Source of the DNA: Spirochaetia bacterium
GTDB taxonomy: Bacteria; Spirochaetota; Spirochaetia; CADAEX01
Length of the DNA: 64,000 nucleotides
Reading direction: 5' to 3'
NCBI GenBank assembly: GCA_963662265.2
Contig: CAXXHA010000010.1
Location: 128,001-192,000 of the forward strand
Below the pieces are notes generated by a model. The model did no database searches. It was not told where the DNA came from and was given only the letters and a program-made list of their open reading frames with translations. Of the stretch, positions 34,743 to 52,218 are shown one piece after another. Positions within the stretch are counted from its first letter, which is position 1, and each line of letters begins with the position of its first letter. Position numbers and translations under genes: made by a program.

Positions 34743-35543
34743 CTATAACGGGCTCTTCACCCTCTTTGATACAGGGTCTGCAAGGTTTATATAGATCATT
34801 GTTGTCTTGACCGATTTATGCCCCAGAAGATCCTTAACTGTCTTGATATCAATCCCGGCCTCTATCAGGTGCGTGGCGAAACAATGCCTGAGAGTATGGC
34901 AGGTTGCACTTTTCTGAATCAAACTCTTATTGAGAGCATTCTCGAATATTTTCTGGACCGTCCTTACAGAATATTTCTTCCCTGAAATTGTCCTGAAAAC
35001 ATAATCAGAAGCATTTCTCCCTGCAGTAAGCTGTCTTAAAGATTCTGAATACTTTTCCGAAAGAAGAGTAATCCTGTCCTTGTTCCCCTTGGAATCCCTT
35101 ATCTTAAGCGATAAGTCATTGAAATTAATATCCCTTATTTTTATTCTGCAGACCTCACTCACACGGAGACCGCTGCCGTAAAGAAGGGAGATAATAAGCT
35201 GATGCTTTTTGTTCTCAATATTTCCTAGAAGCTTAAGGACCTCCTCCCTTGAAAGAATATCGGGAAGCCTTTTCCTTGTTCTTACCCTGTCAAGCTTATA
35301 AGGACAGGGCTTGTCCAGTACAAGAGTATAAAACAGCTTTATCGCTGACCAGGCAAGCCTTCTCTGCTCACTCGAACTCTCTTCATTTTCAAGAAAAAGA
35401 GCAATCCTCCTTTCAGGATCAAAATCAGTTTTCCGGGAATATTCAAGAAAATGCTTCAGATGACCCGTATAAATCCTTACAGTATTTTTCGAATAATTCC
35501 GGTTCTTAAGCTCCCTTGTAAAATCTTCAAGATAATTTTTCAT
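34743..35543 (-). CDS. Tyrosine recombinase, IntI-like but lacking the IntI-specific insertion (putative integron integrase)
   Basis: RNYSKNT N-terminal SAM-like domain, RLPDILS, LLYGSGLRVSE, SKGNKDR, HTLRHCFATHL, LLGH, TTMIY, C-terminal KSPL. All catalytic residues R-K-H-R-H-Y present. ATG 35543 has a G-rich RBS. Confidence 0.9.
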   Translation of the reverse strand: MKNYLEDFTRELKNRNYSKNTVRIYTGHLKHFLEYSRKTDFDPERRIALFLENEESSSEQRRLAWSAIKLFYTLVLDKPCPYKLDRVRTRKRLPDILSREEVLKLLGNIENKKHQLIISLLYGSGLRVSEVCRIKIRDINFNDLSLKIRDSKGNKDRITLLSEKYSESLRQLTAGRNASDYVFRTISGKKYSVRTVQKIFENALNKSLIQKSATCHTLRHCFATHLIEAGIDIKTVKDLLGHKSVKTTMIYINLADPVSKRVKSPL

Positions 35544-35590: not shown

Positions 35591-35619
35591 TTGAATTATA
35601 CACCCGCAGACTTTAAAAT
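35591..35619 (+). promoter_or_regulatory. Pc-like sigma70 promoter facing the cassette array
   Basis: TTGAAT-17 bp-TAAAAT, 25 bp upstream of the attI core. Confidence 0.55.
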
Positions 35620-35650
35620 TATCATGCAATACAGACAATTATAGTTATCG
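35619..35650 (+). other. attI-like site (repeat copy 2 plus core G/TTATCG, crossover between 35644 and 35645)
   Basis: First GTT of the array with no upstream attC arm. GTTATCG..TGACAGGC is complementary to the end of cassette 1 (GCCTGTCA..CGATAAC). Confidence 0.75.
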
Positions 35651-35866
35651 TAAATGACAGGCCTTTGGAAATTTAGAAAGTCATTGATTCTTGACTTCTT
35701 TCTTCATGGCAAGGAACACAGCTGTATAAATTCAATTGTGAATTATGATGCTAATTATTGAAATATTAAGAATAGTTAAAATGCCGAGAATTAAATTTGA
35801 AGAAGCCATGAAGAAATTCTGACTTACATTGATTTGTAGATCTTGAAGCCTGTCACTCCCGATAAC
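35645..35866 (+). other. ORF-less cassette 1 body
   Basis: About 220 bp with no ORF of 60 aa or more; ends form a long imperfect inverted repeat including TTTCTTCATGGC/GCCATGAAGAAA. Confidence 0.7.
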
Positions 35867-36029
35867 AGAGAATACCCGGTTCAGGCATAAGTAGTAAAAA
35901 GTATAGGGCTTAACTGCCGTTCACCCAAAATGTCGGAGCTTTTCTTGTTGCGTGTAAAATCTGGTAGGTATATGATTATTTTAATACGTGGAGAATCCGA
36001 CATCTTCGGATATTCTCAGAACGTTAAGT
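35860..36029 (+). repeat. attC-like site 1 (long type, 170 bp)
   Basis: CGATAAC-A-GAGAATACCCG...CGGATATTCTC-AGAAC-GTTAAGT; closely similar to 37032-37202 and 45660-45827. Confidence 0.9.
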
Positions 36030-36098
36030 GCAATTCTTTGCTTAATATATTTTTTCCTCGCCATCCATGGCTCGGATTTAGAAAAGGAGTATTTCAAA

Positions 36099-36965
36099 AT
36101 GAAAAAAATTATTATTTATTGTTTAGCACTGTTTTTATTATTTTCATGTGCTAATAATGAATTTAATGTAGAACTTGGTATTGATGCAAACTTCATTGAG
36201 AATGATTTAAAAATTACAGGATCAACAAATCTTCCGGATGGTGCAATGATTTCATTAAATCTTAAACCACTATATGAAGAAGAAGTTTCTATTAAAGATG
36301 GAAAAATTGAACATACATTCTCTTTTAATGGAGATGCTATACCTGATGGAGATTATACACTAGAAGCAATATTTATTCCTACTCAAAACGAATCACCAAA
36401 ATTAAAAAATATGATTCTAATTGAAAATGAAAATGTATATGAAAAAGATGGAATAAAATATTATTATATCGGAAATAATTTTAATATAAACAAAGTAGTT
36501 AAAAATAAAGAGCTAAAAAATTTAATAAACAGAAAAGTTCCATATGAAAAATGGAATGATTGGGGAAATCCTGAAACTCTTGAACAAACTAACAATATTT
36601 TTTGGGCAGCATATCTCGAGAAAGCTGATATTTCTTTTATATCAAAAAAAGAGAATGATAAAATCATTTTTGCATGTAGAGGAAAAGAAAAACTAGAAAA
36701 ATATTTTACTGATCGTCAAAATAATATTGAAATTGGATTTTCTCTTTGGGATGGTTCGCATAAAAAACTTACAGAATTAATCAAACAAAGTATGAATGAC
36801 GCAAAAAGTTATGAACATGTTAAAACTGTTTACTGGGATAAAGGAGATCATTTAATAGTTAAAACAGATTTTAGGGGTGCAAATGTTTTTGGAGGTATCG
36901 TCTTAGATTCTGTTACTGCTAAGACATCTATTGATGGTGAGATCTTAGAAATAATTTCAGATTAA
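36099..36965 (+). CDS. Hypothetical lipoprotein (cassette 2)
   Basis: AAGGAG RBS; MKKIIIYCLALFLLFSC lipobox; C-terminal FRGANVFGG motif. Confidence 0.75.
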   Translation: MKKIIIYCLALFLLFSCANNEFNVELGIDANFIENDLKITGSTNLPDGAMISLNLKPLYEEEVSIKDGKIEHTFSFNGDAIPDGDYTLEAIFIPTQNESPKLKNMILIENENVYEKDGIKYYYIGNNFNINKVVKNKELKNLINRKVPYEKWNDWGNPETLEQTNNIFWAAYLEKADISFISKKENDKIIFACRGKEKLEKYFTDRQNNIEIGFSLWDGSHKKLTELIKQSMNDAKSYEHVKTVYWDKGDHLIVKTDFRGANVFGGIVLDSVTAKTSIDGEILEIISD

Positions 36966-37031
36966 TTTTTTACTGCCAGAAAGTACATCCCTGTACTTTC
37001 TGGAATTTATTAAAATTCAGCAAAGAACAGC

Positions 37032-37202
37032 ACTTAACAGAGAATACCACGGTTCAGGCTTAAGCAGTAGAAGCATGTAGCAAAACAGCCGTTCACCCAA
37101 AATGTCGGGACTTTTTATTGTTGCAGGTGGAATCTGTTGGGTATAAGATTAATTAAATATCTGGAGCATCCGACATCTTCGGGTATTCTCAGAACGTTAT
37201 GT
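37032..37202 (+). repeat. attC-like site 2 (long type, 171 bp)
   Basis: ACTTAAC-A-GAGAATACC...GGTATTCTC-AGAAC-GTTATGT. Confidence 0.9.
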
Positions 37203-37431
37203 ACAATGAGCCCGACAAGAGGAAGACGCCCGGACCTCCGGCCGACGGGCGAAGAGATAATATATATATGTTATATCGAAAGAAGGAGTAAAAATGAGAT
37301 TGAAGGCATTAATATTAGAGAACTTCCGAGGCTATTCTGGAGTAAATTTAATTAATTTTGAAAAAGACTGGAAATGGCAAGTCATTTTCCCCACATTTAG
37401 GAAATTAAAAATCCCCCACCTGCAGAAAAAA

Positions 37432-38172
37432 TTATACCCCCTTTTTCTCCTGAATTCTATATGAATCTCCCTCAAGGGAGAAAACATGCGCATGATGTAA
37501 AAGCCTATCAAGCATTGCTGTTGTCATGATTTCATCACCCATCATTTCAGACCACTGATCAAAACCTTTATTTGAAGTAATTATTACTGACGATCTTTCA
37601 TAGAGTTCGCTGATAAGATTAAAAAAAAGATTGGCCTCTTTTCTGTCGATAGGCGTATAGCCTATTTCATCAATAATTAGTAACGAAGATCTGAGAATCC
37701 TGTTTATTCTGAATGAACTTGATCTCATAGTTTCCATTGTTTTCAACAGTTTTATTAGTGAAGTTATCCTTTCAAAACAGACAGTGTATCCGGCTTCAAT
37801 TGCCTTGTACCCGAGAGCAATTGATAGATGTGTTTTCCCAAGGCCGGGAGGTCCAAAGAACATGATATTTTCAGATTTATCTATCCACCTGAAATCCTTG
37901 AGATTATTTAACTGTTCTTCAGTTATCCCTTTTATTCTTGAAAAATTGAATGTCTCAAGTTCCTTAATTACAGGAAAATGGGCACCTGTAAGATTTCTAT
38001 GAAGACGTCTTTCATTTCTGAAATGTACTTCTTCTGTAAGAAGGATGCTTAAAAAATCAAGATGAGATATTTTCTCCTTTGTTGCTTTTTCAAGTGCCTC
38101 ATCAAGATTAACAGATATTCCTTTAAGCTTTAGACTATCAAGTATTCCTGTACAGTAATCAAAACAGCTCAT
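37432..38172 (-). CDS. istB: IS21 helper ATPase
   Basis: GPPGLGKTHL, LLIIDEIGY, ITSN, AMLDRLLHH. Confidence 0.95.
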   Translation of the reverse strand: MSCFDYCTGILDSLKLKGISVNLDEALEKATKEKISHLDFLSILLTEEVHFRNERRLHRNLTGAHFPVIKELETFNFSRIKGITEEQLNNLKDFRWIDKSENIMFFGPPGLGKTHLSIALGYKAIEAGYTVCFERITSLIKLLKTMETMRSSSFRINRILRSSLLIIDEIGYTPIDRKEANLFFNLISELYERSSVIITSNKGFDQWSEMMGDEIMTTAMLDRLLHHAHVFSLEGDSYRIQEKKGV

Positions 38173-39731
38173 AAAGCACCTCCTAAAAGACTTACAAGTG
38201 AGGTGTAGTAACTTAAATCCCTTTTCTTTACTTCTATGTTTTTATTCTCATGTTTTACAGCTTTTATTCCTGTAAGAAGCTGTGGCAGAATATCCGGATA
38301 ATTTTCAGTTTCACAGCTTCTTACATAAAGATAAGACTCTTCAAAATTCCTTGCAGATAGTGTTCCGTTTTCAATGCATAAATCTGCAGTTTTTGCTATT
38401 AACTTATCATCAGGATTTGAGTTTATGAAAGCATAAAGCTCGCGCTGCTGATCTCTGTAATACCTGCTGTATTTTTTGTAATTCTGATCAACATATTGTT
38501 TCCATGAGTTACTGCTAAATCTGTTCTTTAATTTTTTGATAACTTCATCGGGCTTGGAATCATAATTCCTGAAATGATTATGTTTGGTTATTTTTTTCCC
38601 CTTTATCGGTGAGATTTTGTGCCTGGCAATCTCTTCTCCATCTATTTTGTCATAGATAAAAAGGTCTGTATCTGTTTGGTAAATCCAGACAGTTTTTTTT
38701 CTGAACCTGTTAGGGACAGAGTAAAATGAAGATGAAACACTTATCAATGATTTACTATTTACTTCCCTTGATTCTTTATTTATGATGCTTTCCCTTCTGA
38801 AAATAGACGGCTTTAATTTTTTAAAATGTGGAATCTCTTTAAGCAAAGCTTCTTGAGGAATTATTCCAGTTGCCTGGCATATTTTACCGTTAGCTCTTCT
38901 TGAAAGCCAATTATTTAATGCCTCCTGTATTTGATCAAAGGATGTGAAATGTCTTGCTGAAAAGAAACTGCTTTTGATGAATTTCACAAAGTTTTCGACT
39001 TTACCTTTGCTCTCAGGGTCTGCTTTTCTGCAGACATACATCTTAAACCCCTGCTCATCCTTGAAGGCTTTAAATTCTTTTGTATACTTAATATCTCCGC
39101 TGTTTTCTTTAACAACCATGACTTTGTCCTGATCAATCACGATTTCTTCAGGTACCCCTCCTATTATTTCAAAGGTATCAAGTAAATGATTTATCACATC
39201 TATGGATTTAAACGGCCTCTTCTGTACTGCTGCATACTTGAATCTGCTTACAGATAGAATGACTCCAAAGATATATACTTTCTCACCGGTTTCTATTTCA
39301 GTTTCTCCGAAATCAAGCTGTAGTTGTTTTCCATGTGGAAGTTCTTCAACCGGTGTATAGATTCTCTTGTATTCGTAATTATCTACTTCTCCTGTTTTCT
39401 TTAAGAAAATGAGATAATTTCTCAAAGTCCTTTCAGTGCCGGGAAGTTCTCCATATTTTTCTTCAAGAACATCATAGATTGATGAAGTGTATATTTTATT
39501 GTTATTTAAATTAAAAATATTCAGTATTTCATCTTTGAAAGGAGCAAAAATCTTTTCCTTTTCTACACTGTTTATCTGGTATTCAAGATACTCTGCTTCC
39601 GACATTTCAAAGTATTTTCTAACTGTTTTTCTGTCGATTTTTAATTCTCTGGATATTTTCCTTTTTGAATATCCTCTATTCTTGAAAACTCTTATTTTTT
39701 GGTACATATTCATAGTAATCATTTGAGTCAT
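38169..39731 (-). CDS. istA: IS21 transposase
   Basis: N-terminal HTH, QLDFG, GGVPEEIVIDQ, PESKGKVEN. Confidence 0.95.
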   Translation of the reverse strand: MTQMITMNMYQKIRVFKNRGYSKRKISRELKIDRKTVRKYFEMSEAEYLEYQINSVEKEKIFAPFKDEILNIFNLNNNKIYTSSIYDVLEEKYGELPGTERTLRNYLIFLKKTGEVDNYEYKRIYTPVEELPHGKQLQLDFGETEIETGEKVYIFGVILSVSRFKYAAVQKRPFKSIDVINHLLDTFEIIGGVPEEIVIDQDKVMVVKENSGDIKYTKEFKAFKDEQGFKMYVCRKADPESKGKVENFVKFIKSSFFSARHFTSFDQIQEALNNWLSRRANGKICQATGIIPQEALLKEIPHFKKLKPSIFRRESIINKESREVNSKSLISVSSSFYSVPNRFRKKTVWIYQTDTDLFIYDKIDGEEIARHKISPIKGKKITKHNHFRNYDSKPDEVIKKLKNRFSSNSWKQYVDQNYKKYSRYYRDQQRELYAFINSNPDDKLIAKTADLCIENGTLSARNFEESYLYVRSCETENYPDILPQLLTGIKAVKHENKNIEVKKRDLSYYTSLVSLLGGAL

Positions 39732-41717
39732 TCCTGGTAGTTTTTGTCGTGATTACATACTAAGGTTTGACTCTTTTTTTTCCTATAGGGTGGGGAATTT
39801 TATTTTCCATCCTATGGGGATTTCATGTTACCATTTCCAAAGACCTAACATCTTTTATAGGAAAGAATGATAGTGGTAAGTCATCAATTCTTGAAGCTCT
39901 TGAGATATTTTTTAATAGTAAAGTTATTAAAATTGATGGTGATGATAAATTTGTACGTTCATTAGAAAATATTGTGAATATTGGTTGTGTTTTTACGGAT
40001 CTTCCAGAAAAAGTCATTATTGATGAAACTAATGAGACATCATTTATAGATGAATATCTTACAAATGAAAATGAGGATTTGGTTGTTTTAAAGAGATTTA
40101 AAATACAGAAAACTGCAAGTAAACCGGAAACATTTATAATAGCAAATCATCCTAGTAAAACTGGTTATGACGACTTACATAGTTTAAAAATCGGCGAATT
40201 AAAGAAGAGAGGAAAAGAATTAGGTATTAAAGATACCGTAGAAGATCAGAGAATTAGTGCTCATTGGAGAAAAGCGATTTGGTCTTCAACTGATAATTTG
40301 GAAATACAAAAATCTGAAATTGAAATTACACAATTAAGCACAGAATCAAAAAAATTATATACAAGAATAAGTGAAGCAATGCCAACATTTGCTCTTTTCC
40401 GATCAGATAGAGAAAGTAGTGACTCTGATCCCGAAGCGAAAGACCCTATGCAATTAGCAGTAAATGAAGCAAAAAAAACTTATGAAGCTCAAATTAATGA
40501 ATTACAAGAGAAAATAGAAAAAAGTGTTTTCGAGGTTGCAGAAAGAACGCTAGAAAAAATGAATGAAATGGATCCTTCTTTAGCTAATGAATTGAACCCA
40601 AGATTAAAAGAAACACCAAAATGGAGTTTTAGTTTTACAATTGATGGTGATGAAAATATTCCAATTAATAAGAGAGGTAGTGGGGTCAGGAGACTTGTTC
40701 TTTTAAATTTCTTTAGAGCAGAAGCTGAAAGAAAGAAAATTCAAAATCATTCTCCTGATGTAATATATGCAATTGAAGAACCTGAAACATCTCAGCATCC
40801 GAATTATCAGCAATTATTGATTGATTCATTGATAGCATTATCACAAAATGATAATTGTCAGGTTTTATTAACAACACATGTTCCAGCATTGGCAGAAAGA
40901 TTAGAAATTAACTCTATTAGATTTATTGAGAAAATCGGATTAGGTGAAATTAAAGTTCATATGCATAATGATTATGTTTTAGAATTAGCTACAGAAAGTT
41001 TAGGGATAATGCCTGAAAAAGAAATATCTTTAGCCAATAAAGTTATATTAGTTGAAGGTCATAGTGATATAACATTTTTGAATAAAATTAGTGAAGAATA
41101 TAAGAATGCGGGAGAAATAACGTCAACATTAAGTGATTCAAAAATATATCCAATACCTATTGGTGGATGCGGGAATCTTAAACATTGGATAACCAAACGC
41201 ATAATAGATAAAATGGGAATAGAATATTTTATTTTAATGGATTCAGATTTAGGAGATCCAGTAAATAATTCTAGAAACATTACTAAAATAAATGAAATTA
41301 ATACAAATGGTCAAATCGGATATTTAACAAATAAACGAGAACCTGAGAACTATATTGATCCAGATTTATTGAAAACAAAGTATGATAAAGATATTAGATA
41401 CACTAACACTTGTGATGCGAAAAAAATAATTGGAAAAGAATTAACAATTAGACCAAATGATGTTCTTGAGTTTATATGGCCACATATGGAATATCAGCAT
41501 ATGAAAAAAATGGCGAAATATGGTGATAAAGATGAATTCAAAGAGTGGATGGATGCGTTCTTAGAATAATGATAATATGAATATTCTAGCTAAGAAGATT
41601 ATAATGGTGAAGAATCCAAACCTCTGAAATAAAGACAAATAGAGAATGTAATTACTTTTTACAAATAGTATTGCTGACGATATTTTTAAGAATAGCTTAA
41701 ATATCTGGTAGAATACG

Positions 41718-41746
41718 TTCAATAACAATTAAATAAATGGTATAAT
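41718..41746 (+). promoter_or_regulatory. Internal sigma70 promoter for the methyltransferase (probably leaderless mRNA)
   Basis: TTCAAT-17-TATAAT with extended TGn; ATGs 3 and 6 nt downstream of the -10. Confidence 0.5.
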
Positions 41747-41749
41747 TTT

Positions 41750-43546
41750 ATGATGGAAACGAGTCTTTCAGTTCTTATTGAAGATTTATCAGTCTCAGCA
41801 AAGAAATATGAAAATGAATATAACGATGATGAGATGCTTACATTTGCTATTTCATTTTGTCAGAGATTAATATCAACATATTGGCAGATTAATATCTCTG
41901 ATACAAAATATTCAATTACTCCGTATAATTCTGAGCTATATGGATATCTGAAAGGGCAACCAATAATTATTGCTGATCAAATCGCACAGTTATTATCTGC
42001 AATGCCAAATAAGGATGCTGGTTTCTTTATTGGAAATATTTATACATCATTACTTCCGAAGAATGTCAGGTCAAAAAACGGCGCTTATTACACACCTCCA
42101 ATACTCGTACAAAGATTATTAACATCTATTGATAACTATAGATTTGATTGGATTAATAGTAAAATATTGGATCCTTCATGTGGTGGAGCTGCATTTCTTA
42201 CAAGTATATCCAGATTTATTATTGAAAAATATAAACATGAATTATCAGCAGATGATTTATTTTCCTTTATTGAAAAAAACATACAAGGGTATGAAATTGA
42301 TCCTTTTGCAGCATGGATCTCACAAACATTGTTGGAATTTGAATTATATGATCTATATCTCAAAGTAAATAAAAGAATAAAAAAAATCATTTCTGTAACT
42401 AATTCCCTTGAGGAAAATTACGACAAGAATTTTGACCTTATCATAGGAAATCCCCCTTATGGAAAAGTAACAATTGAAAAAAACTTAAGAGAGAAATTCA
42501 GTAATAGCGTATATGGACATGCCAATCTTTATGGATTATTTACAGATTTAGCATTAAATCTTTTAAATGAAAATGGATATATAGCCTATGTTACTCCAAC
42601 TTCGTTTTTGGGTGGAAATTATTTTAAGAATTTAAGAAAACTTTTAGGAGAAAATTCTCCTTTAGTTTCTATTGATTTCATAAAAGATAGAAGTGGCGTT
42701 TTTAGTGATGTTCTTCAAGAAACAGCACTAGCAATATATAAAAAATCAAAATTTGTAAAAAAAGTTGAAATATCTGAATTATCAACTACAAAAAATCTTG
42801 ATTCCTTATCAATTATAAAAATTGGAAGTTTGCTAGTTAATCAAAATACAGAAAAACCCTGGCTTATTCCAAGAGAAAAAGATCAATTATCGTTATATAA
42901 GAATATTTCTTCCTTCGAGTATACTTTACGGGACTATGGATTTAAGGTCCGTACTGGACAACTTGTATGGAACAGACACAAGGAACAATTATCAAGTTCA
43001 AAAAGAAACTCTTATCCTTTAATATGGGCCGAATCCATATTAAGAAATGGAAATTTTGAATTTAAATATACAAAGAAGAATCATTTCCCATACTTTAAAT
43101 TGGAAAGAAAACAAAATTATTTACTCACAAATAAAGAATGTATTATATTACAGCGAACAACATCTAAAGAACAAAGTAGAAGATTAATATCTTCAATACT
43201 TCCAAATGAATTTATTAGTCAATATGGTGGTGTAGTTATTGAAAACCATATTAATATTATAGAACAGAATGAAGAAACAGTTTTAGATTTAGTTACACTT
43301 AATATCTTGTTAAATTCAATAGCAATAGATAGAATTTTTCGTTGTATTAATGGCAGTGTAGCCGTTTCTGCTTATGAGTTAAATTCAATACCATTTCCAT
43401 CCCCAGAAAAGATTTTGAATCTAAAAAAATTCTTAATTAAAAATGATAAACGAAGCTCAATAGAAGAATATATTCTAGATATTTATGGAGGCAATATTGA
43501 TGAGTCAACTTCCTACAGTTCAATCGATACAAGACAAACTGGATAA
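41750..43546 (+). CDS. N6-adenine DNA methyltransferase (BsuBI/PstI/Eco57I-like, gamma class)
   Basis: GAYYTP, LDPSCGGAAFL, IIGNPPY, TRD with LQRTTSKEQSRRL. Confidence 0.92.
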   Translation: MMETSLSVLIEDLSVSAKKYENEYNDDEMLTFAISFCQRLISTYWQINISDTKYSITPYNSELYGYLKGQPIIIADQIAQLLSAMPNKDAGFFIGNIYTSLLPKNVRSKNGAYYTPPILVQRLLTSIDNYRFDWINSKILDPSCGGAAFLTSISRFIIEKYKHELSADDLFSFIEKNIQGYEIDPFAAWISQTLLEFELYDLYLKVNKRIKKIISVTNSLEENYDKNFDLIIGNPPYGKVTIEKNLREKFSNSVYGHANLYGLFTDLALNLLNENGYIAYVTPTSFLGGNYFKNLRKLLGENSPLVSIDFIKDRSGVFSDVLQETALAIYKKSKFVKKVEISELSTTKNLDSLSIIKIGSLLVNQNTEKPWLIPREKDQLSLYKNISSFEYTLRDYGFKVRTGQLVWNRHKEQLSSSKRNSYPLIWAESILRNGNFEFKYTKKNHFPYFKLERKQNYLLTNKECIILQRTTSKEQSRRLISSILPNEFISQYGGVVIENHINIIEQNEETVLDLVTLNILLNSIAIDRIFRCINGSVAVSAYELNSIPFPSPEKILNLKKFLIKNDKRSSIEEYILDIYGGNIDESTSYSSIDTRQTG

Positions 43547-44582
43547 AATATTTCCTCAGGGTTTAGAAAACAGAGGTTATTTGACTCGAGAAATGGCTGC
43601 CAAGACAATATTTGTTATGATTTATTCAACAGCAGTTGAAGGAACAGATATTTGGATTAGACCTGATCAAATTACAAAAATGACTGATAAGCAAGCAGCC
43701 ATTACCGATATTGATAAAAGAGAAGAATGGTATGAAATGACACTTCGTCCTGGAGCTATGAAGGATATTAAAGATCGATGGTATGCTGCAAATACAAGAG
43801 AACCTATTAGAGATGAAACATTAAGATACGGTCTGATAGTGTATAATGCGGTAATAGAGCGCGCAGGTTTACCTACAACATCTTCAAAACCAAGATATGC
43901 TCTACAACGGGAATTCTATGAATTATTTATGGTTGACGAAAATGCAGATGATTTTATTAAAAATTGGCAAGATAAATATTTATCTGCTGAATCATTAGCT
44001 CGGGTAAAATTATTAGGTCAATCAAAACAATCAAAAACTAATAATGAAAATATTTTGATTGATCTGCCAGATGGTCAGAGAAGAAAAATGCTTCCTGGAC
44101 CAAGTTCATTTCTTACAAAAGCAACTGTAGAATTATTCTGTAAATCTTTTTTAAAAAATCCCGTTGTAATTTTCATTAGTGAATCAGGGAATAAAGTAGT
44201 ACTTAAAGATGATGAATTAGCAAAATCAATTGGATTTAATATTCCAGCGGAAAAAAGTTTACCAGATCTGATAATCGCTGATCTTACTGATGACAATACG
44301 CTAATATATTTTATTGAAATAGTTGCAACAGACGGCCCAATTAACAGAAAAAGAAAAGATGATTTGCTGAAAATTGTAGCTGAATCTTCATTTAAAAGAG
44401 AGAATGTATTTTTTATGACGGTATTTGAAGATAGGAATTCAGCACCCTTTAAGAAAAATATATCTTCGATAGCACCAAATACACTTATTTGGTTTGCCTC
44501 AGAACCTGAATTTATAATGATCTGGAATTCTTTAAAAAATTATAAAATTGCAGATATGTCTAGTTTCATAAATGAAACATAA
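43500..44582 (+). CDS. BsuBI/PstI family type II restriction endonuclease
   Basis: WYAANTREPIRDETLR, LPDLII..FIEIVATDGPI (PD-(D/E)xK type); overlaps the MTase end. Confidence 0.9.
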   Translation: MSQLPTVQSIQDKLDKIFPQGLENRGYLTREMAAKTIFVMIYSTAVEGTDIWIRPDQITKMTDKQAAITDIDKREEWYEMTLRPGAMKDIKDRWYAANTREPIRDETLRYGLIVYNAVIERAGLPTTSSKPRYALQREFYELFMVDENADDFIKNWQDKYLSAESLARVKLLGQSKQSKTNNENILIDLPDGQRRKMLPGPSSFLTKATVELFCKSFLKNPVVIFISESGNKVVLKDDELAKSIGFNIPAEKSLPDLIIADLTDDNTLIYFIEIVATDGPINRKRKDDLLKIVAESSFKRENVFFMTVFEDRNSAPFKKNISSIAPNTLIWFASEPEFIMIWNSLKNYKIADMSSFINET

Positions 44583-44677
44583 AAAATAGTTTCAGTAGTC
44601 TTGGCTATTTTTTTTAAAGTATAAATGAAGAATCCAGACCTAACTCCGTTGAACGGTCTGGATGTCGGGCTCAAAGC

Positions 44678-44759
44678 ACATAACAGCGAATATGCGGTTT
44701 CGCTTCGCTTTACCCAAACTGGCCTTTGGCCAGCTTCGCATATTCGCGGAACGTTATGA
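44678..44759 (+). repeat. attC-like site 3 (short type, 82 bp)
   Basis: ACATAAC-A-GCGAATATGCG...CGCATATTCGC-GGAAC-GTTATGA, perfect 11-bp stem. Confidence 0.9.
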
Positions 44760-44834
44760 ATAATTCCTGACCAAGAAGAGACCTTTATACTCGCCATCCA
44801 TGGCTCGTGAAGAAATAGAAAATCTTATATTGTA

Positions 44835-45164
44835 TTAAACACTTAGTATTTTATGATCTTCCAGAATATTACCATCCATTTCTAACAACTGCAAAAATCT
44901 AGAAGCTGGTCCTTGAGGTTTGTTTCTACCGGATTCCCAGGCTTCAACCGTTTTTACAGATACACCAAGTGCTTCTGCGAAAATAGTCTGTGATAAATTC
45001 AATGATAACCGGATTTGTTTTATTTTGGATGCATCATATTTTGGAATTGGAGAAATACTGACTTTCCTTCTTTTTACTGAAGGTAATTTACCTTTACTAT
45101 ATTCAAGAGATTCATTGAGTCCGGAGATAATTGAGTTATAATAATTTTTATCATCGTTTTTCAT
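44835..45164 (-). CDS. HigA-like HTH antitoxin
   Basis: IRLSLNLSQTIFAEALGVSVKTVEAWESGRNKP. Confidence 0.9.
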   Translation of the reverse strand: MKNDDKNYYNSIISGLNESLEYSKGKLPSVKRRKVSISPIPKYDASKIKQIRLSLNLSQTIFAEALGVSVKTVEAWESGRNKPQGPASRFLQLLEMDGNILEDHKILSV

Positions 45165-45514
45165 TTCTGCCCTCCGTTCGTACGTAAATTATTCTTAATC
45201 TGATCTATCAAAGACTTAATATTGTTTTTTTCACCTTTCGTAAGACTTTGCTTTTCACTTTTTCTAAAACAGGCAATCATATGAATCTGTTCAAATGATG
45301 CAAAATCAACATATAGTGTTCTTACGCCACCACTTTTACCTTTTCCTGGAACTGACCATCGAAGCTTTCGCAAGCCCCCTGTTCCTTGAATCATTTTTCC
45401 AGCTTCAGGATTCTCACAAAGCAATATCTCAAGATCTTTGAGATCATCATCTGTCAAATTGGCATCTGCCCACTGTTTTTCGAATGTTGGCATATACACA
45501 AATTCTCGTGTCAT
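45161..45514 (-). CDS. RelE/HigB-like toxin
   Basis: NPEAGKMIQGTGGLRKLRW, GKSGGVR; upstream of the antitoxin. Confidence 0.9.
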   Translation of the reverse strand: MTREFVYMPTFEKQWADANLTDDDLKDLEILLCENPEAGKMIQGTGGLRKLRWSVPGKGKSGGVRTLYVDFASFEQIHMIACFRKSEKQSLTKGEKNNIKSLIDQIKNNLRTNGGQK

Positions 45515-45520
45515 GATTAA

Positions 45521-45549
45521 TTATTACACCCTATTCAATAGGGTGTCAA
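45521..45549 (-). promoter_or_regulatory. TA promoter with palindromic operator
   Basis: Minus strand TTGACA-17-TAATAA; the spacer is the palindrome ACACCCTATT-g-AATAGGGTGT. Confidence 0.75.
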
Positions 45550-45659
45550 GAGTTGAAAATACAAATATTCTAACCTTTAGTTATACTTTTACCTTTTACT
45601 GTCTCAAAAGGACTTCCATGTCCTTTTGAGAATGAAATATCTTAATGGTCAGGAACTAT

Positions 45660-45827
45660 ACATAACAGAGAATACCCGGTTCAGGCATAAGCAGTAAAAG
45701 TTCGGGGCTTAACAGCCTTTCACCCAAAATGTCGGAACTTTCTTGTTGCAGGTGGAAACTGGAGGGTATATGATTAATCAAATATCTGAGGCATCCGACA
45801 TCTTCGGGTATTCTCAAAACGTTATGT
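45660..45827 (+). repeat. attC-like site 4 (long type, 168 bp)
   Basis: ACATAAC-A-GAGAATACCCG...CGGGTATTCTC-AAAAC-GTTATGT. Confidence 0.9.
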
Positions 45828-45881
45828 TCAATTTTTGGTCTAAAATATGTTTAAAAGGTAATTATCCAATAAGGAATCATT

Positions 45882-46550
45882 ATGGTAAAAGAAATGTACT
45901 TGGAATTAACAGGCGTCAATGGAAGACAAATTCAAAATACATATTGGTCTAATGTTGATAATCCATCAAAGATTGTCATTTTCTTTTCCGGTTATCGATA
46001 TCCTACTGAAGCCCCATTATTTCATTTTCTAAAAATACATTTTTTATCAAAAAATTGGGCAGTTTTAACTCTAGATTATAGGTATAATGAAGATTCAGTT
46101 TTTTTGAAGTTATCTGACCCTGAACAAATGAATTATTTGAATACTGAAGCTTTACTTATGAAAAAAAAATTAGAAGAAAATCTTAATTTCGAGCAGTATT
46201 GCTTTATTGCGAAATCTCTTGGCACAACCATTCTATATAAAATGTTAGAAAATGATTTTATTTTCATGAAAGATTTAAAGAATCAATTTGTATGGCTTAC
46301 TCCTGCAGAGTCTAATAGGAAGATATCTGATTTTATTTTAAAAAATACAATTTCTTCGATTTATGTGATTGGAGATGATGATCCATATTATGATGAGGAC
46401 ATCATTTCAAAATTAAGAGATAATTCTTCTTGCTTATGTACAATTGTTTCTGATGCAGGGCATATCTTTAATCATAAAGAAAATCTAGACTTAACCATGC
46501 AGAATAATTTTAATGTCATTAGGTATCTAATTGAGAAGATTAATGTTTAA
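45882..46550 (+). CDS. Alpha/beta hydrolase-fold protein (cassette 5)
   Basis: Nucleophile elbow AKSLGT, GDDDP, AGH. Confidence 0.7.
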   Translation: MVKEMYLELTGVNGRQIQNTYWSNVDNPSKIVIFFSGYRYPTEAPLFHFLKIHFLSKNWAVLTLDYRYNEDSVFLKLSDPEQMNYLNTEALLMKKKLEENLNFEQYCFIAKSLGTTILYKMLENDFIFMKDLKNQFVWLTPAESNRKISDFILKNTISSIYVIGDDDPYYDEDIISKLRDNSSCLCTIVSDAGHIFNHKENLDLTMQNNFNVIRYLIEKINV

Positions 46551-46578
46551 GATACAACCAGATGAGACCAAAAACTGA

Positions 46579-46593
46579 ACATAACAGCGAATA
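46579..46593 (+). repeat. attC-like site 5, left arm only (cut by IS3)
   Basis: ACATAACAGCGAATA identical to the start of site 3, immediately followed by the IS end. Confidence 0.8.
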
Positions 46594-46650
46594 TGGCATT
46601 CCCCCAAAACTGTAGACACTTGATATACTTAGAAACTAAGGAGTATTAAA

Positions 46651-46938
46651 GTGCCAAAGAGTCCCTACACAGAAGAATTTAAAGACGAAATATTAAAGCA
46701 AATAATGGAAGAAGAACACAGTGTTCTTGAAGTATCAAAAGCAACAGGAATAAGTGACGTTACTCTTTATAACTGGCTTAGAAAGGCCGGGTGGAAATCC
46801 GGGGAGTCTCGAGAAAAGAAAAAATTAACAGAAGCAGAAAAGGAAAACAGAGAATTAAAAGCAGAGATCAGAAAGCTTAAGATGGAGCGTGATATCTTAA
46901 AAAAGGCCGCAGCGTACTTTGCGAAGGAGTCCCAGTAA
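46651..46938 (+). CDS. IS3 OrfA
   Basis: YTEEFK HTH, ERDILKKAAAYF; A6G slippery site at 46899-46905. Confidence 0.92.
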   Translation: MPKSPYTEEFKDEILKQIMEEEHSVLEVSKATGISDVTLYNWLRKAGWKSGESREKKKLTEAEKENRELKAEIRKLKMERDILKKAAAYFAKESQ

Positions 46939-47795
46939 AGTACGCTTTTATTCGGGACAACAGAAAAGCGTTTCCAATTCGCCCTATGTGCAGGATATTA
47001 AAAGTTAATCCATCAGGATTTTATCGGTGGTTAAAAACACCAGAATCTCCTAGAACAATAGAAAATAAAAAAGTGACAGAACTAATCCGTTTTTACTGGG
47101 AAGAAAGCGGTCAAGTATATGGAAGTCCAAATATACATGAGGATCTAAAAGAAGCAGGTTATAGCTACGGTGTTAATCGGGTTGCTCGTTTGATGAGAGT
47201 AGCTGGAATAAAAGGTGCTTACAGACGGAAACGGCATCATGTACCTTGGGTTCCTGGAGAAATTTACCAGAAGAATACTTTGAATAGAGAATTTTCTGTT
47301 GCTGAGCCAAATCAAGCTTGGTGTACTGATATAACATATATCCGAACTTATGAAGGCTGGTTATATCTGGCAGTAGTAATTGATCTATTTAACAGAGGAG
47401 TTGTTGGCTGGTCGATGAAGAATCATCAGAAAGCAATTATTGTTATGGATGCTTTGTTTATGGCAGTAAAAAGAAGAAGACCTACAAAGTCTGTTCTTAT
47501 CCATTCTGATCAAGGGTGTCAGTTTACAAGTAAGGATTGGGAGGATTTTTGTGAGGCCCACTCTTTGGAAATTAGCATGAGTAGAAGAGGTAATTGTTGG
47601 GATAATTCTGTAGTTGAATCATTCTTTTCAAATCTTAAAAGAGAAAGAATCAGGAATAAAATTTATAAAACCAGAGAGGAGGCAAGAAAAGATATTTTTA
47701 ATTATATTGAAATGTTTTACAATACAAAAAGACGGCATGGTCATTTAGGAAAGCGAAGCCCTGCTGATTTTGAAGATAAGTTTTCATCAGATTAA
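46935..47795 (+). CDS. IS3 OrfB (DDE integrase core; expressed as OrfAB by -1 frameshift)
   Basis: WCTDITYI, HSDQGCQF, GNCWDNSVVESFF; the 5' coordinate is approximate. Confidence 0.92.
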   Translation, partial: VKYAFIRDNRKAFPIRPMCRILKVNPSGFYRWLKTPESPRTIENKKVTELIRFYWEESGQVYGSPNIHEDLKEAGYSYGVNRVARLMRVAGIKGAYRRKRHHVPWVPGEIYQKNTLNREFSVAEPNQAWCTDITYIRTYEGWLYLAVVIDLFNRGVVGWSMKNHQKAIIVMDALFMAVKRRRPTKSVLIHSDQGCQFTSKDWEDFCEAHSLEISMSRRGNCWDNSVVESFFSNLKRERIRNKIYKTREEARKDIFNYIEMFYNTKRRHGHLGKRSPADFEDKFSSD

Positions 47796-47822
47796 AGTGT
47801 CTACAGAATCAGGGGAATGCCA

Positions 47823-47984
47823 GTTGAAAACTTTAGTGCTGTCGATAGGACATACGATGAAGTAATTAAAAAAGGGGCAATATCAATTCTTAAGCCAACA
47901 ACAGAACCTTGGGGACAAAGAACGTGTTATGTGGCAGATCCTGAAGGAAACTTAATTGAAATTGGATCATTTCAGAAAGATTGA
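47823..47984 (+). pseudogene. 3' remnant of a VOC/glyoxalase gene
   Basis: VENFSAVDRTYDEVIKKGA..PTTEPWGQRTCYVADPEGNLIEIG*; starts exactly at the IS3 end. Confidence 0.85.
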
Positions 47985-47997
47985 TAGAGGGGGATAT

Positions 47998-48345
47998 ATG
48001 TCAACTACACCGGATTTTATTGAATTTGTCTTTGATCAGATTGATAATAAATGGAATAAACGATATAGGAAAATGTTTGGAGAATATATGGTTTACGTAA
48101 ATGACAAACCGATATTGCTTGTATGTGATAATATAGTTTATGCAAAAAAATTGGATTGCATAAAGCCATTTATTAAGGAAAAGGAATGTGGATTTCCATA
48201 TAATGGAGCAAAAGAACATTATATAGTTGATGTTGAAGATGATGAACTTTTTAGTAAAATTATCGAGGAGCTTGAAAAAGTAATTAAAGTACCTGTGAAA
48301 AAGAATAAAAGACGAATAAGTAACGTACAGACTGAAAGATATTAG
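47998..48345 (+). CDS. TfoX N-terminal-domain-like protein
   Basis: RYRKMFGEYMVYVNDKPILLVCDN; GAGGGG RBS. Confidence 0.75.
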   Translation: MSTTPDFIEFVFDQIDNKWNKRYRKMFGEYMVYVNDKPILLVCDNIVYAKKLDCIKPFIKEKECGFPYNGAKEHYIVDVEDDELFSKIIEELEKVIKVPVKKNKRRISNVQTERY

Positions 48346-48420
48346 TGAAAATGTGAAGCCAAAAATATCCATGTATTTGGCAGAGGATATAATCAATAAT
48401 TTCTAAAAACAAAAACTGGG

Positions 48421-48502
48421 TTACAACAAGAAATATACGATTCTGCTTCACTCCAACCAAATACGGAGTTGCCACACTTCGCATATTCCTGAAACGTTAC
48501 AG
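48421..48502 (+). repeat. attC-like site 6 (short type)
   Basis: TTACAAC-A-AGAAATATACGA...TCGCATATTCCT-GAAAC-GTTACAG. Confidence 0.8.
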
Positions 48503-48526
48503 GCAACTACATTCTGAGGAGACTTA

Positions 48527-49078
48527 ATGATAAACAGTGAACGACTTACTTTGAGAAACATCGAAGAGAGAGATATTACTTTTCTTGAAGAAATCTTACT
48601 CGATAAGCGTTTAATGAAATTTATACCACTCCCAATTTCGAATCATGATCAGGTTGAATCATTTATGAAATCATTGATTAAAGCCCAATGTTTACAAAAG
48701 AGAAAACAGTATTTTTTAATAATTGAAGCGAATGATTCAAAGCAGCAAATTGGTACGATAACTGGAAAAATTATTAGCGAAGAAATACAAGATGGTATCG
48801 GTATTCTGGGATATACAATTTTGAAAGAATATTGGGGAAATGGATATGCTACTGAAGCAACAAATACTATTATTTCCTTTTTTCTGAATGAATTGAAACT
48901 TCATAGACTCGAAGCATCAAGTGTAGCTGACAACAAATCATCAGAGAATGTGTTAAAAAAAGTAGGAATGAAATATGAAGGGACTAAACGTAAGTCTCTG
49001 AATATTGATGGAATCTGGTATGATGAATTACAATACGGGATTCTCAGAAACGATATTTCTGCGAACTTTGAATTGTAG
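48527..49078 (+). CDS. GNAT acetyltransferase, RimJ/RimL type
   Basis: SERLTLR, YWGNGYATEA, NKSSENVLKKVGM. Confidence 0.9.
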   Translation: MINSERLTLRNIEERDITFLEEILLDKRLMKFIPLPISNHDQVESFMKSLIKAQCLQKRKQYFLIIEANDSKQQIGTITGKIISEEIQDGIGILGYTILKEYWGNGYATEATNTIISFFLNELKLHRLEASSVADNKSSENVLKKVGMKYEGTKRKSLNIDGIWYDELQYGILRNDISANFEL

Positions 49079-49082
49079 CTTC

Positions 49083-49166
49083 CTATAACAGCGCATGTGC
49101 GGTGCTGCATTCGGCTTTACGCAAATTGGCCTTTGACCAACATCGCATATTCGCAATACGTTGTAC
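49083..49166 (+). repeat. attC-like site 7 (short type)
   Basis: CTATAAC-A-GCGCATGTGCG...CGCATATTCGC-AATAC-GTTGTAC. Confidence 0.8.
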
Positions 49167-49289
49167 ATCATATCAAAATATTATCGTCATTAGCGGCGAT
49201 TAAAGGCAAAAAAGATTTTAAAGAGAAAGGCGATGTTTTTGAAGTAAAAGACATTTCCTGGATAGAAAATATCAGAGGAAAAATATTAT

Positions 49290-49829
49290 ATGAAAAGATA
49301 TATTGCCTTGTTGCGGGGAATTAATATAAGTGGAAAAAACAAGATATCCATGTCTGAATTAAAGAATGGATTTACAGAACATGGTTTTACAGAGGTTGTG
49401 ACATATCTTAATAGTGGTAATGTGATCTTTTCATGTATTAATAATAATGAAGCTGTTCTTTCAAATGAAATAAAGTTAATGATAAAAGAAAGATTTGATT
49501 TAAACATACCGGTTTTTGTTGTCTTACAAGAAAAATTAGAAGAACTATTAAATCATGCTCCCGGTTGGTGGGGAAATGATAACAAAGAAATATATGATAA
49601 TCTCATTTTTATGATGCCTCCTTTATCTTATGAGGAGTTTTATGATGTAATCGGCAATCCTAAAGCGGAATATGAAAAAGTGCATAATTACAGCAATGTT
49701 ATTTTCTGGTCATTTATACGGAAAGATTATCAAAAGACAAATTGGTGGTCAGGGACTGCTGGCTCAAACATAAGTGATAAGATTACAATTCGAACAGCTA
49801 ATACAGTAAGAAAGATAGTGAGTATGTGA
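49290..49829 (+). CDS. DUF1697 family protein
   Basis: YIALLRGINISG, TYLNSGNVIF, TIRTANT. Confidence 0.85.
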   Translation: MKRYIALLRGINISGKNKISMSELKNGFTEHGFTEVVTYLNSGNVIFSCINNNEAVLSNEIKLMIKERFDLNIPVFVVLQEKLEELLNHAPGWWGNDNKEIYDNLIFMMPPLSYEEFYDVIGNPKAEYEKVHNYSNVIFWSFIRKDYQKTNWWSGTAGSNISDKITIRTANTVRKIVSM

Positions 49830-49879
49830 TATATAGTAGTGAGGTTAATTAAAATCTCAATATTACTTATGGAGAAAGA

Positions 49880-50028
49880 ATGAGAATTGAAAATGTCAGC
49901 AAAAAAGACTATTCACAGTTAATTGAAATATGGGAAACTTCTGTACGTTCAACTCATGATTTCCTGACTGAAAAGGATATTATATCGTTAAGATCTTTAA
50001 TAATTGATAAATATTTTCCTGCTGTTGA
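49880..50028 (+). pseudogene. Truncated YjaB-like GNAT fused to half an attC
   Basis: IWETSVRSTHDFL N-terminus; the sequence switches to an attC right arm at TTGAC (~50025). Confidence 0.7.
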
Positions 50029-50058
50029 CCAACTTCCCATATTCGTGAAACGTTATAA
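50025..50058 (+). repeat. attC-like site 8, right arm only
   Basis: TTGACCAACTTCCCATATTCGTGAAAC-GTTATAA matches the right arm of site 7. Confidence 0.7.
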
Positions 50059-50095
50059 GCAATTAATAAATTGATTAGTTTAAAGGAGTTCTAAT

Positions 50096-50590
50096 ATGAA
50101 AGCTGCATTAATGATAATTGATATGCAAAAAGAATATTTCACTGGTCTTGCAAAAAAATCAATGACCGAAGCATCCGAGTATATAAATGAAGTTTTAGGG
50201 TATTTCAGAGAACGAAAACTGCCTATTGTTTGGGTTCAGGATATTGATAAAAAATGTGGAGTTGTTCCAGATTCAGAAGGTTTTGAAATTATTGATTTAC
50301 TAGAGAAGCAGAATAATGAAATAAGTATTTTCAAAGAATATGGAAATAGTTTTAATAAAACAGAATGTGGAAATATCCTAAAGAAAGAAAATGTCGATGT
50401 AATTGTAATAACTGGATACTGTGCAGAATATTGTGTTTTATCTACATATCGAGGCGCTCAGGATTTGGATTTTACACCAGTCATACTGAAAAAAGGAATT
50501 GCGAGTGGTGATTATCAGAATCTACAATTTATTGAGAAAATCTGTGATACAATTCCCTATAATATAATCAGCAAGATGATTGGAAAATAA
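50096..50590 (+). CDS. Isochorismatase/cysteine hydrolase family protein
   Basis: IIDMQ, K..NSF, GYCAEYCVLST. Confidence 0.9.
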   Translation: MKAALMIIDMQKEYFTGLAKKSMTEASEYINEVLGYFRERKLPIVWVQDIDKKCGVVPDSEGFEIIDLLEKQNNEISIFKEYGNSFNKTECGNILKKENVDVIVITGYCAEYCVLSTYRGAQDLDFTPVILKKGIASGDYQNLQFIEKICDTIPYNIISKMIGK

Positions 50591-50613
50591 TACTCCCAAG
50601 TACTACTGACTGT

Positions 50614-50706
50614 TCATAACAGGGGCTATTTACTCCGCCAAGTCGGGCTTCGTGCTGCACCATTTTTGGCCTAAGCCAAACATCACATAACCCAAGAACG
50701 TTATTG
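50614..50706 (+). repeat. attC-like site 9
   Basis: TCATAAC-AGGGGCTAT...ATAACCCAAGAAC-GTTATTG. Confidence 0.7.
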
Positions 50707-50741
50707 GCAATATCCCTTAAGATCAACATGTGAGGAAGATA

Positions 50742-51647: not shown

Positions 51648-51665
51648 CGGAGACCGGGAGACTAT

Positions 51666-51748
51666 CAAGAACAGTGAATATGTGGTTCAGCATTCAGCAT
51701 CTCCCAAAATGCCGTTGACCAACATCGCATATTTACAAAACATTATAG
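51666..51748 (+). repeat. attC-like site 10, degenerate (GTT changed to ATT)
   Basis: CAAGAAC-A-GTGAATATGTG...CGCATATTTAC-AAAAC-ATTATAG. Confidence 0.7.
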
Positions 51749-51786
51749 TTAATTTTGAATTAAGATTTTAATCAAGGAGTTTTCAT

Positions 51787-52218
51787 TTGAATATTACTAA
51801 AATGACAATAGCTGACTATGACGAAGCATTTAAACTCTGGTCAAATACTGAAGGGATGGGACTACGCTCCCTTGATGACTCACAAAAGGGTATTGATTCT
51901 TTTTTACAGAGAAATCCCAACACAAATTTTGTTTGCAGAAATAACAGTGAATTGATTGGTGTCATTTTATCAGGGCATGATGGTCGAAGAGGTTATATTT
52001 ATCATGCTGCTGTACATCCAAATTACCGGAGAAAGGGAGTTGGAAGAAAACTTGTAAAAGAAGTTATTTCTTCGCTGGACAAAGAGGGAATAAAAAAAGT
52101 CGCATTAGTTGTTTTCTCAAGCAATCAGAAAGGCAATGACTTCTGGGAATCTTTAGGCTTTATAAATAGAAAAGACTTGAATTATAGAAATCTCGCTATT
52201 GATCCTACAAATATTTGA
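51787..52218 (+). CDS. GNAT acetyltransferase (YpeA-like)
   Basis: GHDGRRGYIYHAAVHPNYRRKGVG; TTG start with AGGAG RBS. Confidence 0.88.
   Translation: MNITKMTIADYDEAFKLWSNTEGMGLRSLDDSQKGIDSFLQRNPNTNFVCRNNSELIGVILSGHDGRRGYIYHAAVHPNYRRKGVGRKLVKEVISSLDKEGIKKVALVVFSSNQKGNDFWESLGFINRKDLNYRNLAIDPTNI

Follow-up and report, generated by a model that had tools for sequence, protein, structure and literature searches.

Sedentary chromosomal integrons, of which the Vibrio cholerae superintegron is one, and Xer/dif recombination are the closest described relatives of the system reported here, together with CTXphi attP(+), a phage site whose folded single strand mimics dif and on which the host XerCD acts through one strand exchange. 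According to parts of two published accounts (PMC8352920, PMC9668308), the integron integrase IntI is defined by an additional domain, and part of Nivina et al. 2016 (PMC5027507) describes the canonical cassette recombination site (attC) as carrying extrahelical bases, a two-sided spacer and a variable terminal structure. Here we describe a cassette array in a 64,000-nt stretch of a Spirochaetia bacterium genome (contig CAXXHA010000010.1, positions 128,001 to 192,000; this whole stretch is called the window), in which the two ends of single cassettes form inverted repeats of about 20 bp. These repeats are genuine, specific to each cassette and well beyond what chance would give. The explanation that we favour, with somewhat better than even confidence, is that they form the outer portion of the folded attC of the cassette itself, and that the system is integron-like and served by a short IntI/Xer-like recombinase without the IntI additional domain.

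The array shares much with sedentary chromosomal integrons: a divergently oriented tyrosine recombinase next to arrayed promoterless cassettes, attC sites that fold and bear AAC/GTT triplets, a crossover in the G|TT region, first cassette bases that are complementary to the cassette's own inverse core, a cargo of GNAT, reverse-oriented toxin-antitoxin and defence genes, and cassettes common to different arrays. Unlike canonical integrons, its recombinase lacks the domain that defines IntI, its sites lack extrahelical bases and have a spacer that is unpaired on one side only, and its R-arm helix, in which position 11 is always mismatched, reaches ~20 bp, as opposed to 7–13 bp in canonical arrays. 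In our literature searches we came across neither a cassette array served by an IntI relative that lacks the additional domain nor ~20-bp cognate pairing outside the core.

Cognate terminal repeats and canonical controls

For each cassette, 30 nt of its start (from the G of the GTT core onward) were compared with 30 nt of its end (up to the C of its own inverse core) after reverse complementation of the latter, and the score was the number of matches at positions 8–22 (of 15). "End" here means the point at the inverse core (R'') where the cassette-specific part stops; the attC interior (70–160 nt) and then the next cassette follow. All repeats that an earlier note on this DNA had quoted for cassettes c1–c5 and c7 were found in place (Table 1), and its figures for c5 (20 of 21 bases) and for the distance between the c3 arms (about 7.5 kb) were right. 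As a control, all 197 non-cognate start/end pairs of the window array gave a mean of 4.85/15 (standard deviation 1.6) with a maximum of 9, and the 13 array-adjacent start/end pairs gave 2–7 of 15. In the distal cassettes c9, c10, c11, c13, c14 and c15 the outer pairing was mostly lost (5–7 of 15), while c12 scored 11/15.

The earlier note had allowed that outer pairing of equal length might be routine in canonical cassettes. This objection failed, as canonical cassettes paired over 7–13 nt and not ~20. The same genome encodes a canonical full IntI (383.6 bits, above the cut-off) on contig C8 (77912–78853, locus L097), and its array (L105, 1–19900) lies upstream of the IntI gene on the same strand. 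The 12 cassettes of this array showed 8–10 identical nt followed by random sequence, with a mean of 5.2/15 at positions 8–22 against a background of 4.2. Exact runs of 8–13 nt were found for seven cassettes of a betaproteobacterial metagenome-assembled genome (MAG; L064), of 7–10 for five cassettes of an Acidobacteriota MAG (L023) and of 9–10 for three credible cassettes of a Lysobacterales MAG (L058), and the class 1 cassettes dfrA12 and aadA2 gave runs of 7 and 12. Canonical cassettes thus routinely pair for a few bases beyond the 7-nt core, in keeping with a recombinase arm of 10–11 bp. A repeat search of three further canonical IntI loci (L054, L055, L074) revealed no arrays in reach. Two ways of finding sites were rejected: AAC...GTT pairs ranked by DNA folding energy did not separate known sites from the AT-rich background, and chains of 7-nt cognate cores, meant as a model-free cassette finder, gave chance chains of 3–6 everywhere. 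Such chains were retained only for L064, L023 and L058, where the attC hairpins were inspected. Within L105 we also noticed seven inverse-core half-sites for which a core site was not found within 160 nt by pattern; a group II intron in them is unsupported, as no Rfam family matched the canonical array.

The short recombinase, its arrays and their sites

The recombinase gene adjoins the cassette array in divergent orientation (Table 1), and the same layout was seen at eight other loci (L009, L010, L012, L013, L014, L018, L019 and L022). Against the integron-integrase model TIGR02249 the protein scored 204.9 bits (cut-off 265) in two stretches, about equal to its 206.1 bits against the archaeal XerA model (cut-off 220). 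In a genome-wide search it covered the IntI profile at positions 2–177 and 240–313 only, and in the alignment to VchIntIA (2a3v) 57 chain residues were faced by 12 recombinase residues. The best solved match was P. abyssi XerA (4a8e), aligned in one stretch with an E value of 3e-39. All eight short relatives included in a MAFFT alignment with five canonical IntI showed the same gap, and a shared C-terminal SPL motif was also seen. By profile, structure and MAFFT comparisons alike, the window recombinase has no IntI additional domain around patch III. Its closest proteins measure 265–266 amino acids (aa) and come from Spirochaetota. A maximum-likelihood tree was built from 37 sequences; its 15 canonical IntI formed one clade (100/100), and the short recombinases fell outside this clade as an unresolved grade; because the Xer outgroup is a single, very long-branched sequence, this tree gives no direction of evolution.

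We surveyed the window and 88 fetched loci (89 loci in all). Pairs of GTT...AAC ends with at least 16/19 matches and the same internal signature were present in a second array of the same genome (contig C5, locus L008) and beside recombinase relatives in other genomes. A stricter signature scan was positive at 13 of the 89 loci, 12 of which lie beside short-clade recombinases or are L008, the thirteenth (L031) being probably spurious; it gave zero matches at full-length IntI loci or in L105/L106. A covariance model, R1, was built from 10 short attCs and is blind beyond position 8 of the next cassette. It matched 46 sites at E <=1, all at short-clade recombinase loci or L008, and none at the full-length IntI loci of the survey set. 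Consecutive R1 sites, together with a few hand-placed ones, delimited 34 cassettes (33 unique), and at least 9/15 matches at positions 8–22 were counted in 27 of the 33. Signature cassettes accompany 11 of the 16 recombinases that make up the short-clade rows of the tree, and R1 matches accompany two more; the recorded hosts include Spirochaetota, Nomurabacteria, Peribacteria and two MAGs recorded as Bacillota and 'Gammaproteobacteria'. Long cognate arms are a defining trait of a domain-less integron variant. The C5 array (L008 of genome G000, ~3780–12340, minus strand) belongs to the same attC family and has long arms, with no recombinase beside it; it starts at the junction aattataGTTATCGTAAATG, as the window attI does, and carries a degenerate copy of an IS21-type element.

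Arm statistics were compiled over the 33 unique cassettes, which come from Spirochaetota, a Peribacteria and a 'Gammaproteobacteria' MAG. Identity between start and reverse-complemented end was 85–100 % at positions 1–7, fell to 73, 64, 64 and 0 % at positions 8, 9, 10 and 11, rose to 97 % at position 12 and 73–88 % at positions 13–19, and ended with 58 % at position 20 and ~24–42 % beyond. The clustering of mismatches, which the earlier note had placed at positions 7–11, was thus seen at positions 8–11 across the family. Position 11 was always mismatched (A vs G in 30/33) because the start motif AAT and the end motif (A/T)GT are both near-invariant: starts carried A10 and A11 in 33/33 and T12 in 32/33, and reverse-complemented ends carried A (21) or T (11) at position 10, G11 in 30 and T12 in 31. 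The bottom strand has a T.G wobble at position 11, the top strand A.C. Positions 13–20 showed no consensus between cassettes, only complementarity within each cassette being common. Arm polarity was fixed, with A10–A11 at the start in all 33 and G11 at the end in 30. In only 3/27 cassettes was the palindrome flanked on either side by a direct repeat (AAGAG-type), and we rejected target-site duplication as a general feature on that count. A miniature inverted-repeat transposable element (MITE) or transposon with terminal inverted repeats was likewise set aside, given outer arms that differ from cassette to cassette and the rarity of the flanking repeat, as were shufflons or invertible segments, given the fixed polarity of the arms.

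To model the excised circle, the end of each cassette was joined in silico to its own start and folded with DNA parameters at minimum free energy. An outer stem of 11–15 pairs formed in c1–c4 and c7 in addition to 6–7 R-box pairs, with a small internal loop or mismatch between outer stem and R box in c3 and c4. This bears out the earlier proposal that the hairpin of the circle extends beyond the core with an internal loop. The outer stem was absent in c9 and c12 and partial in c11 (7 outer pairs). On the bottom strand, the circle form was favoured over the array form by -10.8 kcal/mol in the 25 cassettes scoring at least 9/15 (-9.0 kcal/mol for all 31), compared with -2.9 kcal/mol in nine cassettes of the canonical array. 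Moreover, the bottom strand of the circle was stabler than the top strand in 25/25 family cassettes (mean -4.3 kcal/mol), compared with 1/9 in the canonical array.

The interior of the sites also set the family apart. Bottom-strand folds of short-family attCs showed a one-sided bulge of 3–4 nt (0–1 nt opposite) and an unbroken L stem of 10–12 bp free of single-base bulges in four of six cases, the other two (window attC7 and an L010 attC) being irregular; window attC3, for instance, folded into R box, one-sided 4-nt bulge and 11-bp L stem with no single-base bulge. In contrast, all four canonical attCs that were folded, taken from the same genome, had single-base bulges (extrahelical bases) and a two-sided spacer. 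Short-family sites therefore show neither extrahelical bases near L'' on the bottom strand (4/6, two irregular) nor a two-sided unpaired central spacer of ~5–6 nt. They do form an imperfect attC hairpin with R''...AAC and GTT...R', as seen in the consensus fold of 10 sites, the model matches and the individual folds.

Cassettes common to different arrays revealed where exchange takes place. One cassette (1977 bp with its attC) stands first in a Marispirochaeta MAG (L010) and recurs, at 99.5 % identity, as an interior cassette in a congener of the window genome (G011, L095); the recombinase beside it in L010 is only 43 % identical to that of the window. The match between the two copies sets in exactly at GTTATAAGC and breaks off inside the next GTTAG, demonstrating that both arms travel with the cassette and that the crossover lies in the G|TT region. 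The claim that the arms fix the cassette boundaries and the G/TT crossover is thereby supported, and the boundary at G|TT, together with a cassette start complementary to its own R'', is that of an integron. A second cassette is common to L008 and L095 (99.4 % identity; 99.7 % by blastn). Window c12 is 83 % identical to an L010 cassette with intact arms (13/15), which shows that arms decay in place; the same comparison gave one compensatory change, at position 9.

Proposed mechanism and rival explanations

Integration at G|TT splits the site into a half at the cassette start and a half directly ahead of the attC interior, and the two are brought together and pair in no form but the excised circle. 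Under the explanation by outer attC arms, the bottom-strand fold would rebuild a Xer-type core site. Its putative R arm would comprise 11 nt (positions 12 to 2), with TTA conserved innermost and AAT outermost, and the cleavage point after this arm, placed by analogy, would be that of ordinary integrons (AA|C). Six central nt would follow on the strand to be cut, with only two partners opposite, and then a predicted L arm of 11–12 bp closed by the terminal structure. The R arm would contain an obligatory non-Watson–Crick pair at position 11 and often a second one at position 10. As the enzyme lacks the additional domain and the sites lack extrahelical bases, the T.G pair at position 11 is the obvious candidate for a strand mark; it may do what extrahelical bases and additional domain do in ordinary integrons. 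The 8–9 cassette-specific pairs beyond the arm (positions 13–20) would act as a clamp, a function that we infer: the mismatched arm end, lying at the open side of the hairpin, would otherwise fray. Being cognate, the clamp would form in circles only and make the circle a much better substrate than an attC in the array, with a bias to capture and array stability. Efficient capture at attI and slow excision are predicted, and a preference for integration over excision, though putative, is consistent with the circle–array energies (-10.8 vs -2.9 kcal/mol). Such a preference was one of two possibilities raised in the earlier note, the other being a trace of cassette making.

This arrangement resembles Xer/dif in its Xer-sized enzyme and in the inferred 11-nt arm, 6-nt centre and 11-bp arm on the folded strand. 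It differs in that the sites are single-strand hairpins, many per genome and each on a mobile cassette, in the extra clamp outside the arm, and in a central region that is essentially of one strand (two partners opposite). Dimer resolution of the Xer/dif kind, with a single double-stranded core site of two arms and a 6–8-bp centre per replicon, was rejected in view of the dozens of hairpin sites in arrays. With CTXphi attP(+) the sites have in common a folded single strand, a Xer-like core, unpaired central bases and strand specificity; that system differs in having one phage site instead of a cassette array and in using host XerCD instead of a dedicated recombinase. Part of a study on the XerH/difH structure (PMC5241119) describes, for XerH, ~10–11 bp clamped per arm and a 6-bp centre, with the inner 5 bp being read and the outermost pairs mattering for cleavage. 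The conservation of TTA and AAT in our sites matches this reading of inner and outermost arm positions and likens them to difH.

Several observations weigh against the explanation by outer attC arms and clamp. Among homologous cassettes we found one clear compensatory double change (position 9, C/C vs T/T), too little to demonstrate selection for pairing at positions 13–20, and mismatches outside positions 10–11 showed no significant bias to bottom-strand G.T (17 vs 12, p = 0.46), position 11 alone being asymmetric. The decay of the arms in distal cassettes means that they are not maintained in place. Six of the 33 cassettes scored below 9/15, two or three of them being probably mis-delimited, and one of these low scorers (L018 19188) paired to position 9 only. 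Model R1 has its four R-box pairs mis-specified by one column, and the "bottom" strand was assigned by analogy with ordinary integrons. The likeness of positions 2–12 to a dif half-site is presumed, and a search for the dif site of the host returned 236 weak candidates, none of them clear. No circle junction was present among public-run contigs; since contigs cannot show rare excision, this result says nothing on activity.

Some of these points would suit a different origin of the arms, namely as a birth scar: an inverted duplication made at cassette formation (e.g., by fold-back or hairpin-templated synthesis), with no role and subject to later decay. Arms that are near-perfect in integrase-proximal and decayed in distal cassettes, outer sequences individual to each cassette, and the near absence of compensatory changes and of a wobble bias outside positions 10–11 are what such a scar would leave. 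We nevertheless judge it unlikely: the near-invariant AAT and (A/T)GT with their obligatory mismatch at position 11 recur across phyla and show selection at least to position 12, the AAGAG-type repeat flanks both sides in only 3/27 cassettes, and the trait goes with a single recombinase clade and is absent from the canonical array of the same genome, which points to recombination chemistry and not to general cassette making. Less likely still are outer boxes that serve as separate double-stranded binding sites, forming a second arm for the integrase or for an accessory protein at each cassette end. Their constant distance from the core and the conserved 3-nt motif at positions 10–12 would be in keeping with such sites, and the earlier note had likewise spoken of a second integrase-binding arm. 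Positions 13–20, however, have no common sequence and would be unusable by a sequence-reading protein, so that sequence-specific binding there is improbable; we gave up that part of the note, since positions 2–12 look like a single 11-bp Xer-type arm and the rest like a clamp.

The arms bracket each cassette, and several cassettes have conserved hairpins immediately within both of their ends, as might be expected if the 5' and 3' ends of a transcript paired to insulate or process single cassette messages. Such an RNA device is very improbable, as the sense (top) strand folds more weakly in 25/25 cassettes and has A.C at position 11, the c4 genes lie on the opposite strand, and c1 has no open reading frame (ORF) of at least 60 aa. 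The probability that we attach to chance or low-complexity similarity is practically negligible: nothing but the AT-richness of the region speaks for it, yet none of the 197 non-cognate pairs reached 10/15 while the first five cassettes all do, and the pattern recurs in independent genomes.

The explanation by outer attC arms bears on how integrons are recognised. Their definition and the software that searches for them rest on the IntI additional domain and the canonical attC model, so arrays like that of the window would be filed as integrase-less clusters or missed. The system would also amount to a natural experiment, in which the additional domain and the DNA features read by it (extrahelical bases and two-sided spacer) are missing together, their place being taken by an extended R arm, the invariant wobble and the clamp; this bears on the purpose of the additional domain and on a possible origin of integrons from Xer-type enzymes. 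A clamp that forms in the circle only would be a simple, testable way to bias capture over excision and could become a design rule for structure-specific recombination tools. A bolder version, which we put forward tentatively and consider rather doubtful, is that these arrays represent a second, domain-less branch of integrons, possibly near the ancestral state, in which a Xer-like enzyme recombines single-stranded hairpins that restore an entire Xer core site, one T.G wobble picks the strand in lieu of extrahelical bases, and the circle-only clamp is a directionality switch. The corollary, bolder again, is that fold-back synthesis produces the clamp when a cassette is first formed. If the corollary were true, the clamp would be the first physical trace of how cassettes arise.

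Layout, cargo and minor features of the window array

The array comprises about 15 cassettes from 35644 to about 57000, reading away from the recombinase gene (Table 1). Two sizes of attC-like hairpin separate them, a long type of ~170 nt (attC1, attC2, attC4) and a short type of ~80 nt (attC3, attC6, attC7 and most of the distal ones).

Table 1 Features of the window array, with the matches at positions 8–22 given for each cassette in the row of its 5' arm
Feature	Position	Strand	Remarks
IntI/Xer-like tyrosine recombinase gene	34743..35543	(-)	266 aa from first Met; profile searches, structure alignments, MAFFT
attI-like junction	35604..35650	(+)	first crossover G at 35644; junction aattataGTTATCGTAAATG recurs heading the integrase-less C5 array
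c1 5' arm	35644..35664	(+)	G 35644, C 35866; 10/15
c1 3' arm	35846..35866	(+)	ends in R'' (CGATAAC)
attC1	35860..36030	(+)	long type, ~170 nt; R1 39.1 bits, E 3e-5
c2 5' arm	36023..36042	(+)	G 36023, C 37038; 12/15
c2 3' arm	37019..37038	(+)	
attC2	37032..37203	(+)	long type; R1 34 bits
c3 5' arm	37196..37217	(+)	G 37196, C 44684, 7489 bp apart; 12/15
c3 3' arm	44663..44684	(+)	
attC3	44678..44760	(+)	short type, 82 nt; R1 92.7 bits
c4 5' arm	44753..44773	(+)	G 44753, C 45666; 13/15
c4 3' arm	45646..45666	(+)	
attC4	45660..45828	(+)	long type; R1 49.9 bits
c5 5' arm	45821..45841	(+)	G 45821, C 46585; 13/15, 20/21 overall
c5 3' arm	46565..46585	(+)	
c7 5' arm	48496..48513	(+)	G 48496, C 49089; 9/15, one indel
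c7 3' arm	49072..49089	(+)	
attC7	49083..49167	(+)	short type; R1 77.6 bits
Distal cassettes c8–c16	49160..57020	(+)	decayed arms, partly mutated cores (ATT, CGTT, TTT for GTT)

The cargo is typical of chromosomal integrons. Cassette c3 (7.5 kb) combines an OLD-family ATPase/nuclease with a methylase of Eco57I type and an endonuclease of BsuBI/PstI type, and c4 carries a RelE/HTH toxin-antitoxin pair on the opposite strand; GNAT acetyltransferases, an EamA transporter, an isochorismatase and a flavodoxin are also encoded. Cassette c1 spans 223 bp (35644–35866) and has full arms with no ORF of at least 60 aa; it may be a promoter, RNA or empty cassette. The OLD-family gene of c3 (37295–41569) is interrupted by an IS21-family element on the minus strand (istB 37432–38172, istA 38169–39731). 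Between the OLD and methylase genes, a remnant at 41695–41730 resembles the 3' end of a long attC (…AATATCTGG…ATAC|GTTCAAT), and c3 may represent two fused cassettes; its outer arms nonetheless match over 22 nt, and its positions 10–11 (TT) are atypical.

Further down the array, attC5 is cut by an IS3-family element (~46594–47822), after which 47823–47990 holds the 3' end of a gene without its start, suggesting an IS-mediated deletion of cassette DNA. At 49880–50074 a 64-aa ORF continues directly into the right half of an attC, as if a deletion had fused the interior of a cassette to a half-site. Positions 54682–54820 and 56796–56934 form a direct repeat of 139 nt (95 %), which covers the 3' end of a small gene and a duplicate fragment of it two cassettes away.

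Just inside the arms lie conserved modules (window 37217–37260, 36058–36075, 44793–44810 and 44635–44662; likewise in L008, L010 and L095). The 5' leader module consists of AAGAGRAGA with a GC-rich hairpin, or of a CTCGCCATCCATGGCTCG hairpin, and the 3' module is a hairpin of the form CCAGACC-N14-GGTCTGG. An Rfam search of the window array returned no relevant family. Marine metagenome contigs pile up on the leader and trailer modules (summed contig depth ~330 and 164) with other cargo between them, and apparent circle joints in one marine metagenome were other cassettes with the same leader/trailer modules. Finally, a direct repeat of ~22 bp (TTATCA[C/T]GCAATACAGACAATT) stands on either side of the recombinase gene, at 34697–34720 and 35619–35642; these putative recombinase-binding sites may alternatively be the ends of an inserted module.

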